Below are positions 992 to 52,542 of a DNA stretch of 64,000 nucleotides, piece after piece. Position 1 is the first letter of the stretch, and every line of letters begins with the position of its first letter. The DNA is from an uncultured Dehalococcoidales bacterium (GTDB lineage: Bacteria; Chloroflexota; Dehalococcoidia; Dehalococcoidales; E44-bin46): positions 7,403-71,402 of the forward strand of contig CAYQQD010000001.1 of the NCBI GenBank assembly GCA_964419575.1. Reading direction: 5' to 3'. Position numbers and translations under genes: made by a program. The notes under the pieces are model-generated. The model saw only the letters and a program-made list of their open reading frames with translations. It was not told where the DNA came from and ran no database searches.

Positions 992-1993
992 ATGAAAGCC
1001 TGGGTTTTACAAAAGCAAGCGGCGATTGAGACAAGACCCCTATTACTGCAAGAATTCCCTATTCCCCAAGTAGGGGAGAGCGAGATAAGAGTAAAGGTGC
1101 ACGCCTGTGGCGTGTGTCGGACTGACCTCCATGTGGCTGAGGGTGATTTGCCTTTAAGAAAGTCGCCTGTAGTCCTGGGCCACCAGATTGTTGGGGTTGT
1201 GGATAGGGTAGGGGAGGGAGTGGCCAAATTTAAAGTCGGCGATGGGGCTGGCATAGCTTGGCTTAATTCCGCTTGCGGCAATTGCTGGTTCTGCCGCTCA
1301 GGGCGAGAAAACCTATGCCCTGAAGCAAAATTCACCGGCTGGGATACCGATGGTGGCTATGCTGAATACGTAACGGTATCACAGGACTTTGCCTTTCGCC
1401 TTGGGAAGACCCTTTCTTTTGTTGAAGCTGCGCCTCTTATGTGCCCGGGAATAACCGGCTACAGGGCTCTAAAACTCACTGAGGCAAAAAGGGGCGATAA
1501 GCTTGGGCTTTATGGGTTTGGACCGGCTGCCTCCTATGTCCTCCAGGTGGCGAAATACTTGGGCATAGAAACATATGCCATTACCAGGAGCCAAAAGAAT
1601 AAAGATTGGGCGACAAGGCTGGGGGTGGACTGGGTAGGGGGATATGAAGATAAGATGCCTACTAAGTTTGACGCCGCAATTGTATTCCCACCGGCAGGGA
1701 ATCTAGTTGAGCTTGCCCTCTCCCAGCTAGATAGCGGGGGAAAGCTGGTTCTGGCGGCGGTCTATATGACTCCCATTGAGGTCAAGAACTATAATCACCT
1801 GTGGATGGAGCGCTCGGTAAAGAGTACGGCTAACATCACCCGAGACGATGGAAGGGAATTCCTGGAGATTGCGGCAAAGATAGGGATAAAAACCGAGGTT
1901 GAGGTCTTCCCATTTGATAAATTGCCAGAGGCTCTAATCCTAGCTAAAGGTGGTAAGGTTAAAGGGAACCCTGTAATTAAGGTCGCTGACTAA
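992..1993 (+). CDS. Zn-dependent alcohol dehydrogenase (MDR superfamily)
   Basis: 333 aa. Catalytic-Zn region 'CGVCRTDLHVAEGDL', 'GHQIVGVV', and structural-Zn Cys cluster 'CGNCWFCRSGRENLC'. Confidence 0.85.
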   Translation: MKAWVLQKQAAIETRPLLLQEFPIPQVGESEIRVKVHACGVCRTDLHVAEGDLPLRKSPVVLGHQIVGVVDRVGEGVAKFKVGDGAGIAWLNSACGNCWFCRSGRENLCPEAKFTGWDTDGGYAEYVTVSQDFAFRLGKTLSFVEAAPLMCPGITGYRALKLTEAKRGDKLGLYGFGPAASYVLQVAKYLGIETYAITRSQKNKDWATRLGVDWVGGYEDKMPTKFDAAIVFPPAGNLVELALSQLDSGGKLVLAAVYMTPIEVKNYNHLWMERSVKSTANITRDDGREFLEIAAKIGIKTEVEVFPFDKLPEALILAKGGKVKGNPVIKVAD

Positions 1994-44216: not shown

Positions 44217-44320
44217 CAGTTCCACATATTTCCTCCCACCACAATGACAAAGCTCACCACTGTGCTATTCGTTCTTCGATTGACAGACATTCTATAATTA
44301 ATGCAAGCTAATAATTGCAA

Positions 44321-44490
44321 CGGTAGGAGAGACCTTTAATAGAGAGACGGGGGTGAGCTCATGGTCTTGAAACTTTCAGGCAAAAGGACTACCATTGGCA
44401 ACATCTCTGGAGAGACCATTGCGTGCGGCCACCGAAGGGGTAAGTCCGCAAATAGGGAGCGGACAATCTTTCAAGCAGAAGGAAAGGGGT
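44321..44490 (+). promoter_or_regulatory. tandem glycine riboswitch (the second aptamer is canonical, the first divergent)
   Basis: Aptamer 2 reads 'CTCTGGAGAG..GGCCACCGAAGGGGTAAG...AATCTTTCAAGCAGAAGGAAAG'. Aptamer 1 reads 'GGTAGGAGAG....AACTTTCAGGCAAAAGGACTACC' and lacks a clean CACCGAAGG box. Both are on the same strand as, and upstream of, the 44631 gene. Confidence 0.7.
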
Positions 44491-44630
44491 GATAATCTGC
44501 GCTAAATCCTTGGTAAGCCTTAAAAAATGATATAGAATTTCAGAGGTAAGGACGGTTTTAAAGGAAGATAAGTATTAGTTTTTGATATGCTACCAAATTA
44601 TTGAATTAATTGAATAAAGGAGTTATGAAA

Positions 44631-45914
44631 ATGGCTAGAAAAGAAATAGAAAAGGGGAAGTGGGACAAGATACTTTCACAGATTGATGTGCCTAAACTCA
44701 TCACCTACGAAAGAAATTTAGTTAAAATTCCGAGCTATTTGGGTGAAGAAGAGGCTAAAGCTGATTATGTTGTCAAAGAACTAGAGAGAATAGGGGCGGA
44801 GGTTTATGAAATGCCCCTGCCGACCGAGGATCCACCGAGACGTCGCAGTGTTATTGGTATCCTCAGGGGTGACGGTACCGGAAGGACTTTATTAACCGGT
44901 GCTCACTTAGATACTCACGCTAAAAAAGAAGGTCAATTACACCCTCATGATGGCGTAATAGAGGATGGTAAAATTTATGGCGTTGGCACTGGTGACAGTC
45001 ATCCCGGCCTGGCGGCAATCATGGAGGCTATGGATACCATTAAGAGGGCAGGAGTTCAACTTAAAGGCGATTTGATATTTGTTGCTGATGCCGATGAGCT
45101 AGGGCATAAGCACGGAGCCAAGATGGTGCTGGATAGTGGTGTCAAAGCCGATATGTGCATCTGGTGTGACGCATCAGAGGATCCTATTAATATGTACATA
45201 TGTAATACGGGTAAAGTTGAGGTTGAAATCAGGGTAAAAGGCACCTACGATTTTATCCTCTCGGCATTTGCCGAGAGAAAAGGGATGAAAGCAGTCAATG
45301 CCGTGGTTTGTATGCATAAGATAATGGATTACCTCTTCCAGATGCAGAAGGAAGAACCATATTTCCACAAGAAGCACCCCTTGCTACCGGGAGAGGGAGC
45401 AGCCTTTTATATCGGTCCAATAATAGGGGGGAGTGTTGGTTATGGCGACCCCACGCGTAAGGCTGGTGTTGGACCAGGTCCGTTTGGACTAGCGGTCCCG
45501 ATGCCGACCTGGTGCAGATTGAGGGTGGGTGCCAGATACTGGCCGGGAGAAACAGCAAAAGAATTTGTTGATGTTGTCAATAAATGGGTAGATAAAGCTA
45601 GAGCTGACCACCCTTCCGCTGAGATAGAAGTCGAATGTTATCTCGACGATGGAAATGTTCCCTGGGAAATATCCCCTGATGCCGAGGTAGTGCACGTGCT
45701 TGGAAGGTGCATAAAGTATGTTCACGGCAAAGAGCCCAAATGTGCCGGGTTTATTGCCTCCGGCGACCAGGTATTTTACTCCCAAGCGCCGATGGAAAGT
45801 ATCTGGTATGGTTGCAACATGAGAATTGGCCGCGTAGACGAGTATGTTACCGTAAAGGAGTTGACCGACCTGTGTAAGGTCTACGTGACAGCCATAATGG
45901 AAGTTTGCACGTAA
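44631..45914 (+). CDS. M20/M25/M40-family metallohydrolase (ArgE/DapE/ACY1-like)
   Basis: About 427 aa. 'GAHLDTH', 'GTGDSHPG' and 'FVADADELG' are metal-ligand-type segments. AAGGAG lies 8 nt before the ATG at 44631. Confidence 0.75.
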   Translation: MARKEIEKGKWDKILSQIDVPKLITYERNLVKIPSYLGEEEAKADYVVKELERIGAEVYEMPLPTEDPPRRRSVIGILRGDGTGRTLLTGAHLDTHAKKEGQLHPHDGVIEDGKIYGVGTGDSHPGLAAIMEAMDTIKRAGVQLKGDLIFVADADELGHKHGAKMVLDSGVKADMCIWCDASEDPINMYICNTGKVEVEIRVKGTYDFILSAFAERKGMKAVNAVVCMHKIMDYLFQMQKEEPYFHKKHPLLPGEGAAFYIGPIIGGSVGYGDPTRKAGVGPGPFGLAVPMPTWCRLRVGARYWPGETAKEFVDVVNKWVDKARADHPSAEIEVECYLDDGNVPWEISPDAEVVHVLGRCIKYVHGKEPKCAGFIASGDQVFYSQAPMESIWYGCNMRIGRVDEYVTVKELTDLCKVYVTAIMEVCT

Positions 45915-46000
45915 TCTCCTACCAACCACTGAGATTGACAAAATAATTAAAGCAGAGGTTTCTCTGGACTATCATAGGGTAACCATTGGAGGTCAAAATA

Positions 46001-47242
46001 ATGGATAAAATAATAGCAGTTTTGGCAACCCTGGATACCAAAGGGTATGAGGCAAAATACCTTAAAGATGAGATAGAGAAGAAAGGAAAGAAAACTTTAG
46101 TAATAGATGATGGCATGCTTAAGGACCCGTTGGCGCTTAAACCTGATATTACGCAGCAAATTGTTGCTGAAGAAGCTGGCTCATCCTTTGAGGTAGTTAG
46201 GAAATTAGGCAGAGGAGCAGCTGCAGAGATAATGATGAAAGGTGTGGCAAAAGTACTTAAGGATGCTCATGCCGCCGGGAAATTTGACGGTGTGATTGCC
46301 GTAGGTGGACAGGATGGGGCTTTGCTTGCTGCCGCTGGAATGAGAGTGTTACCCGTAGGTGTGCCTAAACTTATTGTCACTCCTATATTTCAAGGACAGG
46401 AGCCCTTTGGTAACTATGTAGGTACCAATGATCTAATGATGATGCATTCCGTAGTGGATATTCTAGGTGTTAATGAACTAAGTATGAAAATATTTGATGT
46501 CGCTATTGGTGCCATTGTCGGAATGGTAGAGGCTAATGTGAGCTCCAAAATGCTACAGAGCAAAAACTTGATTGCAACAACAATGTTTGGAAACACTACT
46601 CCGCTGGGCATGATGGTTAAGTCACGCCTTGAGGAAAAGGGATATGAAATGGTCGTCTTTCATCCTAATGGCACCGGGGGAAGATCAATGGAGGAACTCA
46701 TCAAGCAGGGAGCTTTTGCCGCGGTTTTTGATATGACTCCTCATGAAGTAACCGGTGAGTTATTTGGTGATCTTATGAGGGCTGGACCTGATAGATTAGA
46801 AGCTGCCGGTAGAAAAGGAATCCCTCAACTTATCGTTCCAGGATGTATAGATTTTCTTATTCTAGGTCCGTTTGACAGCCTTCCAGCTAAATATAAAAAG
46901 CGCAAAGTTTATCACTTCAACCCGGCGGTCACTATGGTGAGAACAACCAAGGAGGAAATGGCGTTGACTGCCAAGGTTATGGCGGATAAACTAAACAAAG
47001 CAGTCGGACCAACTGCGGTAGTCATTCCTTTGGGCGGGTTTGATATGTACTGTCACAAAGGGGAACCACTTTATGATCCGGAAGCGGATAGGGCCTTTAT
47101 TGAAACTTTTAAGAAGCATTTAAAACCTGAGATTAAGGTTACAGAAGTGGATGCACATATAAATGATCCTGTAGTTGCCGAAACAGTTGTCCCTATTCTT
47201 ATTGAATTGATGGAAGGGCGTGGTAAACATAGAGGTTTCTGA
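46001..47242 (+). CDS. UPF0261-family protein (Tm-1 N-terminal-like)
   Basis: 'MDKIIAVLATLDTKGYEAKYLKDEIEKKG' is a typical UPF0261 start. GGAGG RBS before 46001. Confidence 0.7.
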   Translation: MDKIIAVLATLDTKGYEAKYLKDEIEKKGKKTLVIDDGMLKDPLALKPDITQQIVAEEAGSSFEVVRKLGRGAAAEIMMKGVAKVLKDAHAAGKFDGVIAVGGQDGALLAAAGMRVLPVGVPKLIVTPIFQGQEPFGNYVGTNDLMMMHSVVDILGVNELSMKIFDVAIGAIVGMVEANVSSKMLQSKNLIATTMFGNTTPLGMMVKSRLEEKGYEMVVFHPNGTGGRSMEELIKQGAFAAVFDMTPHEVTGELFGDLMRAGPDRLEAAGRKGIPQLIVPGCIDFLILGPFDSLPAKYKKRKVYHFNPAVTMVRTTKEEMALTAKVMADKLNKAVGPTAVVIPLGGFDMYCHKGEPLYDPEADRAFIETFKKHLKPEIKVTEVDAHINDPVVAETVVPILIELMEGRGKHRGF

Positions 47243-47345: not shown

Positions 47346-47597
47346 CTATTTTGCCTTACCCCTAAATAGACCACTCACTTCTATCTGCTCGGCGGTAAGC
47401 GTACTTATGACTTTGCTGGGAGCTTTGGGAACCGGGATGCCTGCCATGGGATTGAGTAGGATATAGTCCTCTCGCTTTGCCCAGGAGAAGAAAGCCTTCA
47501 ACGTGCGGACATAGCCCTGTATAGTGGCTGCAGAAAGCGGCCTTTTGCTTCTGGGAACTTCAGCATGGTTACTTGACGGTAGCGATTGGTTTGCTAA
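47346..47597 (-). pseudogene. fragment of a tyrosine recombinase (second half of the N-terminal SAM-like domain only)
   Basis: My own translation gives '...RPLSAATIQGYVRTLKAFFSWAKREDYILLNPMAGIPVPKAPSKVISTLTAEQIEV...'. It has no start and no catalytic domain, and is bounded by stops. Confidence 0.6.
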
Positions 47598-52466: not shown

Positions 52467-52542
52467 TGGTAGGCCGTGAAGGAATCGAACCTTCGACACC
52501 CTGATTAAAAGTCAGGTGCTCTGCCAACTGAGCTAACGGCCC
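52467..52542 (-). tRNA. tRNA-Lys (anticodon UUU), CCA encoded
   Basis: Hand-folded cloverleaf with acceptor GGGCCGT/ACGGCCT, D-arm GCTC-AGTTGGCA-GAGC, anticodon arm CCTGA-CTTTTAA-TCAGG, T-arm GAAGG-TTCGATT-CCTTC and terminal ACCA. Confidence 0.95.

Follow-up and report, generated by a model that had tools for sequence, protein, structure and literature searches.

Glycine riboswitches are known in Chloroflexi (PMC3766115). The degradation of tandem units to singlets is a described route (PMC6944388), and a single aptamer suffices when it is accompanied by the P0 and aptamer-1 P1 helices and by a UAA bulge in aptamer 2 (PMC5066625). The only characterised member of the UPF0261 family is MarK, an ATP-dependent aromatic kinase (PMC12624787; probably PDB 9mpy) for which K16 is needed, and full-text literature searches turned up no publication that places a glycine riboswitch with M20 or UPF0261 genes. 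Here we analyse the leader of an operon encoding an M20-family protein and a UPF0261 protein in a 64-kb stretch of DNA from an uncultured Dehalococcoidales bacterium (hereafter the window, meaning the whole stretch), and compare it with homologous loci on other contigs (designated L001, L002 and so on). The leader element is genuinely homologous to a known class of riboswitch, stands in a new gene context and is in decay. Judging from sequence and predicted folds, we consider the window copy to be a riboswitch relic whose operon is probably expressed constitutively, by read-through from a conserved promoter (probability about 0.6).

Descent from a tandem glycine riboswitch and lesions of the window allele

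The 225-nt unit of the window aligned to the tandem units of sister strains with an nhmmer score of 233.7 bits (E 5e-70). Among these leaders, that of L016 scored 62.6 bits (aptamer 1) and 48.5 bits (aptamer 2) against RF00504, both above the gathering score of 32 bits. Aptamer 1 of L016, folded alone, adopts the canonical three-way junction (-34.6 kcal/mol, z -3.38). The leader also holds a 13-bp terminator hairpin at 1380-1418 (AGGGGGUGGCAAU...AUUGUCAUCCCUU, then UUUUUACUUU; dG -22.4 kcal/mol, z -4.05), and the 5' arm of this terminator (1380-1392) overlaps the 3' strand of aptamer-2 P1 (1379-1386). This overlap points to a glycine-ON transcriptional switch, in which ligand-stabilised P1 excludes the terminator. 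By its sequence and predicted folds, L016 is thus a carrier of a bona fide tandem glycine riboswitch before an M20–UPF0261 operon. A preliminary description of the window had proposed a glycine riboswitch ahead of these two genes; the proposal holds in intact form for L016, and the descent of the window element from a tandem glycine riboswitch is borne out by its match to leaders that include this one.

Ancestrally, the order would have been that of L016: promoter, P0, aptamer 1, aptamer 2 and an intrinsic terminator that uses the 3' strand of aptamer-2 P1 as its 5' arm. Glycine would keep P1 closed and the terminator blocked, allowing RNA polymerase to read into M20–UPF0261 (anti-termination). 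With both sensors damaged and the 3' arm of the terminator deleted, the window copy would permit glycine-independent read-through, and the 128-nt leader (44503-44630) would be the seat of any residual control. Within 44260-44640 of the window the order is promoter-like element, P0, unit 1, unit 2, a leader of ~135 nt, the Shine–Dalgarno (SD) sequence and the M20 ATG at 44631. The features are as follows:

44280-44298, + strand: promoter-like element (TTGACA 44280-44285, 7-nt spacer, TATAAT 44293-44298), at the start of the common cassette
44315-44401, + strand: degenerate aptamer 1 within P0 (RF00504 24.3 bits), with the junction of a 13-nt deletion at ~44354/44355
44397-44496, + strand: aptamer 2 with core substitutions (RF00504 26.8 bits), P1 at 44402-44408 / 44485-44491
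44494-44506, + strand: junction of a ~75-nt platform deletion, flanked by direct repeats AATCTGCG(C/A)TAAA and without the 3' arm of the terminator
44503-44630, + strand: downstream leader of 128 nt, common to all alleles, with SD GGAG at 44619-44622
44631-45914, + strand: divergent M20-family protein of a NaaA-like subfamily, 427 aa (PF01546 82.8 bits)
46001-47242, + strand: UPF0261 protein with a Tm-1/MarK-type ATP-binding fold, 413 aa (PF06792 and PF23189)
47526-47551, + strand: terminator-like hairpin and T-run 3' of the operon (consensus match only)

Two adjacent glycine-aptamer-like units had been reported here, and both were recovered at 44314-44496 with their boxes at the coordinates given below. 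RF00504 aligned end to end with unit 1 (44314-44401, 24.3 bits, E 0.053 in 2 kb) and with unit 2 (44397-44496, 26.8 bits, E 0.0014 in 251 nt). Both scores fall below the gathering score, the outcome that the preliminary description had itself named as refuting its proposal. A scan of all 64 kb with Rfam at the gathering threshold reported no glycine riboswitch; its sole match was a tRNA (52470-52542, - strand, 72.5 bits). The tandem architecture is nevertheless present in the window, with two aptamers in series and a P0 leader-linker helix (UUGC 44315-44318 with GCAA 44398-44401), and an RNAalifold consensus of five distinct tandem units contained P0 and the P1 helix of each aptamer, together with compensatory changes.

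Each aptamer of the window retains roughly two of three boxes of the consensus core (GGAGAG, CCGAAGG and CUCAGGCA...GGAC), and a relaxed core pattern was matched by neither window-type aptamer. Aptamer 1 has P1 (GGUAG 44322-44326 / CUACC 44389-44393), GGAGAG (44326-44331) and the CAGGCAAAAGGAC box, while its CCGAAGG box reads GACGGGGG; both here and in the L009 group (L009-11), GCCG-GGGG stands in place of GCCGAAGG. Aptamer 2 comprises GGAGAG (44409-44414), CACCGAAGGGGUAAG (44430-44444), UUUCAAGCAGAAGGAA and a P1 of CAUCUCU/AGGGGUG; it retains GGAGAG and CACCGAAGG, but reads CAAGCAGAAGGAA. To call aptamer 2 near-consensus, as had been done, is an overstatement: CAGG has become CAAG (44474), GGAC has become GGAA (44484), and one of three Watson–Crick pairs is left at the base of P3, where the RF00504 alignment flags non-canonical pairs. 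The P1–P2–P3 three-way junction was not recovered for aptamer 1, which has lost its UAA bulge together with the 5' arm of P3b and whose minimum free energy (MFE) structure is without P3. That structure (-14.2 kcal/mol, z +0.51) is no better than those of shuffled sequences, and aptamer 2 gave z -0.44.

Alignment with L009-11, L048 and L016 shows two deletions in the window allele, each with short direct repeats at its junction. Thirteen nucleotides (AAGAGACCGGGGT), which in aptamer 1 make up the UAA bulge and the 5' arm of P3b, are missing between two GGGGT repeats, and ~75 nt, including the 3' arm of the terminator, are missing between the two AATCTGCG(C/A)TAAA repeats. The junction repeats, of only 5-9 nt, are too short to mislead an assembler, and the identical allele recurs in four further contigs (L049-L052) from four different samples, so it is not an assembly artefact. 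No hairpin was found after aptamer 2 in 44470-44545 (z +1.34), nor any terminator-like site between the aptamers and M20 in the window leader; an expression platform that competes with aptamer-2 P1 was seen in L016, but not in the window. The L009 group retains the ~75 nt, yet its terminator has decayed and no equivalent hairpin forms (z -0.34). With two damaged sensors and no terminator, transcription probably enters the operon regardless of glycine, and the window copy appears to have lost its glycine response.

The absence of an obvious terminator after the aptamers had been noted before and stands, but not as the sign of translational control for which it had been taken, since the terminator has been deleted: the ancestral platform is an intrinsic terminator whose 3' arm lies in the ~75 nt that the window lacks. 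Translational control in the window was also considered in its own right and rejected, because no anti-SD sequence is specific to the aptamer-bearing alleles and the SD-proximal leader is the same in aptamer-less ones.

The promoter-like element TTGACA-N7-TATAAT is kept in the window, L009-11, L048, L002, L016 and L047, and the sequence 5' of it varies with context. We infer that it acts as a promoter, with a spacing that is not canonical for sigma-70. A candidate independent promoter further downstream (TTGGTA-17-TAGAAT, 44510-44538) matches at 9 of 12 positions and is not conserved in L016; the same region held 9 such promoter-like matches, where shuffled sequences gave 6.4 ± 2.6. The downstream leader of 128 nt (44503-44630) is present in every allele, aptamer-less ones included (98.6% identity to L009-11 and L002, ~90% to L047 and 79% to L016), and had no Rfam match. 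RNAalifold placed in it a weak candidate stem (44507-44520 / 44554-44566), for which four sequences yielded four compensatory pairs. The leader could be a second regulatory element. We rejected leader conservation as a mark of constraint, as the identity between the window and L009 is a mosaic along the whole locus, coding sequence included. Within the unit, blocks of 98-100% identity lie beside blocks of ~88%, a pattern that suggests recombination.

Alleles of sibling strains and the competing readings

Contigs that encode an identical M20 protein bear different leaders: the window type, L053 and L054. L053 still has the 13 nt, but a deletion that starts in the 3' part of aptamer 1 has also taken aptamer 2 and the platform; in L054 the platform segment is kept. 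The window and L053 alleles are not derivable from each other and therefore reflect independent events. In L002, both aptamers have been lost between two GGGGTGA repeats. Over the same lineage, M20 identity is 95-99% at codon positions 1 and 2 and 82-86% at position 3, the pattern of a gene under purifying selection.

In L047 (87% M20 identity), the cassette of promoter plus riboswitch is inverted. The inversion spans 385 nt between otherwise syntenic contigs (L016 1015-1395 versus L047 1274-1638), and the aptamer part of this segment corresponds to window 44279-44502. One strand of the segment bears the promoter with the tandem riboswitch, and the opposite strand a second TTGACA...TATAAT-like element. 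The riboswitch is directed toward M20 in L016 and toward a divergent short-chain dehydrogenase (SDR) gene in L047, where the other promoter-like element faces M20; the inversion thus swaps promoters. The terminator arm of L047 is orphaned yet still complementary over 12 bp, as worked out from the alignments. An inverted repeat of only ~5 bp (GCGCA/TGCGC) flanks the segment. Separately, L047 contains a Phage_integrase fragment gene at 84-329.

Several points weigh against reading the window element as a relic. L016, a contig of 2.5 kb, is the sole source of the intact state. The allele of the window is widespread and stable, with an aptamer 2 only two positions off that of L009, although the mosaic identity along the locus keeps this conservation from counting as constraint. 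Aptamer 1 keeps P1 and aptamer 2 keeps its A-rich bulge, which are the requirements of a singlet, and aptamer 2 might bind. Finally, the core substitutions would be disabling by the measure of consensus and pairing, as distinct from a glycine-contact structure.

The best surviving alternative, which we consider improbable, is that the window carries a working type-2 singlet in which aptamer 2 binds glycine, aptamer 1 is a ghost scaffold and the output is something other than termination. In one such output, AAGGA of the aptamer (44480-44484) and the SD sequence AAGGAG would compete for UCCUU (44507-44511). The retention of P0, aptamer-1 P1 and the aptamer-2 UAA bulge agrees with a singlet, these being the elements that suffice beside one aptamer, as does the described route from tandem to singlet; the MFE structure of 44470-44545 pairs AAGGA with UCCUU, and the allele is fixed in several samples. 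However, aptamer 2 itself scores below the gathering threshold, with two mismatches at the base of P3 and an altered GGAC. The UCCUU and SD region is unchanged in the aptamer-less L002 and L053 and so has not co-evolved with the sensor, and the whole window leader folds no better than shuffled sequences (z -0.07). Sibling strains do without the sensor altogether, and ON contexts normally retain aptamer 1, not aptamer 2 (PMC6944388).

Considerably less probable is a variant aptamer that has been retuned to a non-glycine ligand related to the substrate of the M20–UPF0261 pair. GCCG-GGGG (for GCCGAAGG), CAAG and GGAA are common to the diverged leaders of the window, L009-11 and L048 and in part to L047, and the gene context is atypical for glycine. 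But the changes break base pairs and show no covarying remodelling of the pocket, the terminator has decayed in the same lineages, sensor deletions are tolerated, and the sequences are too few to show constraint. The best model of a tandem variant, RF03166, also gave only 39-76 bits against a cut-off of 110 (76.1 bits end to end for L016, 39-41 bits for L009-11), and in the window it was outscored by the single-aptamer RF00504 model. That the element is a chance match or its deletions an assembly artefact would fit the two sub-gathering Rfam scores but is effectively ruled out by two adjacent same-strand matches with a P0 linker, by the nhmmer E value of 5e-70 to orthologous units of which one (L016) clearly passes Rfam, and by an identical allele in four other contigs from four samples with junction repeats of 5-9 nt.

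The relic reading remains the one that we prefer. The alleles of this narrow lineage form a series (intact, point-mutated, partly deleted, fully deleted and inverted) in which the regulated genes stay under purifying selection. Such snapshots of riboswitch loss are rarely documented, and the series supports the published view that glycine tandems erode. For annotation, it illustrates that a riboswitch match under the threshold can come from a genuine homolog whose function is gone.

The M20 and UPF0261 proteins and their surroundings

Both gene calls of the preliminary description were confirmed. The M20 protein matched PF01546 with 82.8 bits (gathering score 24.6 bits), and no NCBIfam equivalog passed; against TIGR01910, of the ArgE/DapE deacylases, it gave 134 bits where the cut-off is 217.6. 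The subfamily is a rare one: among 5.8 billion proteins, only 44 relatives were found. The relatives place the window locus in Dehalococcoidia; L002, the chromosome of a Dehalococcoidia metagenome-assembled genome (MAG), is 95% identical. The closest solved relative of the family is the 5-nitroanthranilate aminohydrolase NaaA (5k8m, E 2e-26, full length). With NaaA, to which its profile match runs full length, the M20 protein shares a C-terminal motif that ends in Cys, and neither has the canonical C-terminal His. The two are distantly related, and the M20 protein resembles this deaminase more than it does the peptidases. The missing C-terminal His, one of the five canonical metal ligands of ArgE/DapE deacylases, falls opposite a gap when the family profile is aligned with DapE (7uoi). 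C295 and C426 are invariant in the subfamily and C176 nearly so, and there is no conserved Glu at the GEPT position. The metal site may be non-canonical.

The UPF0261 protein matched PF06792 (163.4 bits) and PF23189 (268.2 bits), both above gathering, and NF002674 (470 bits). It aligned with 9mpy at E 3e-64, with Lys14 opposite K16. It shares with MarK the two-domain fold family and the ATP-site lysine, whereas the partners differ: MarK works with acetovanillone-pathway genes, and the fixed partner here is an M20 protein. In nearly all loci with enough sequence, UPF0261 lies directly downstream of M20. As an observation apart, in a clade of 63% M20 identity UPF0261 was called as two consecutive open reading frames of 287 aa and 90 or 126 aa (L055 4395-5645, L056 2558-3808), which could be a frameshift or a pseudogene.

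M20–UPF0261 loci occur in Dehalococcoidia, Alphaproteobacteria, Clostridia, Atribacteria and other groups. Recurring neighbours include creatininase-family amidohydrolases (L038, L040 and L046), an NCS1 permease and ABC importers of the Liv and CUT2 types. A divergent DAO-family oxidase lies near the pair in Alphaproteobacteria, further neighbour loci include L055/L056 and L036/L042, and L040 has two additional UPF0261 genes, one of them beside a creatininase-family gene. We infer that the two genes form part of a catabolic module that acts on an imported small molecule bearing an amide or amine. The substrate may be an N-acyl- or N-carbamoyl-glycine, as had been suggested.

The unit of promoter, leader, M20 and UPF0261 (window 44279-47242) has different flanking genes in different strains: NadA upstream in the window, other genes in L009, L048 and L002, and the divergent SDR gene in L016 and L047. 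Similarity between strains stops at the UPF0261 stop codon; downstream of the operon in the window is a GAF protein gene on the opposite strand. No convincing repeats flanking a mobile cassette were found in the window. Just 3' of UPF0261, at 47346-47560 (- strand), we noticed what looks like a piece of a tyrosine recombinase (N-terminal part, LSAATIQGYVRTLKAFFSWAKREDYILLNPMAGIPVPK...), interrupted by stop codons; its 51-aa open piece had no Pfam match, and the identity is a reading by eye only.

Reach of the association and comparison with known systems

Across 57 M20–UPF0261 loci from several phyla, searched with Rfam, nhmmer and core-pattern scans, glycine-aptamer cores were found only in L016, L047, L009-11 and L048, and no aptamer was found outside the clade of at least 87% M20 identity. 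We preferred pattern scans to a single-aptamer covariance model of our own, in whose alignment MAFFT confused the two types of aptamer. The link between the glycine riboswitch and M20/UPF0261 is real but found only in one Dehalococcoidia sub-lineage; for its intact form there is the L016 contig and, in addition, the orphaned but complementary terminator arm of L047. The broader idea that M20/UPF0261 is a generally glycine-responsive function does not find support.

A different conserved leader of ~440 nt precedes the operon in L001 (5560-6000) and in L012, L014 and L015 (72-75% M20 identity). It contains a terminator-like hairpin (GATGACCACGCGGGTGTCATTTTTG) ~90 nt before the start codon, and it had no Rfam match and no detectable homology to the glycine leader. 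We rejected the notion that it is a further-decayed glycine element, as the local resemblance (ACCGTTTATAGAAGAG...CAGGCAAATGGGA) is unsupported by nhmmer and Rfam; possibly, it is an unclassified cis-regulatory RNA for the same operon. On the same L001 contig, from a Dehalococcoidales MAG, a selenocysteine tRNA (72 bits) lies at 1725-1815 (- strand), ~4 kb upstream of M20.

In L016-type strains, the layout of the leader suggests that the pair would be induced by glycine. Put as a whole, the idea that, under intact leaders, expression of a NaaA-like M20 enzyme and of a UPF0261 kinase is turned on by glycine, and that the 385-nt cassette is a movable module, is speculative and rather unlikely to hold in full. 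If true, there would be an undescribed glycine-linked catabolic step, under a module that can be flipped to a divergent SDR gene (L047) and is being lost in siblings. The first catalytic assignment in UPF0261 dates only from 2025, which makes a glycine-ON switch a concrete lead to the substrate of the pair.

Compared with the tandem ON-type glycine riboswitch (gcvT class, RF00504), the elements described here have in common two aptamers, the P0 linker and the GGAGAG, CCGAAGG and CUCAGGCAAAAGGAC boxes, of which each window aptamer keeps roughly two of three, and the terminator of L016 competes with aptamer-2 P1 as it does in the class. They differ in the genes that follow, M20–UPF0261 and not gcv or a transporter, and the window copy is below the cut-off and has no terminator. 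The glycine-GGAnGA variant RF03166 belongs to the same clan; with scores far below 110 bits, the leaders are not members. From singlets with ghost aptamers (PMC5066625, PMC6944388) the window element differs in that the surviving aptamer is also damaged, the platform is deleted and the large deletion lies in aptamer 1, which is normally kept in ON contexts. It is like them in having an eroding aptamer with a kept P1, and in following the route from a tandem to a degraded riboswitch.

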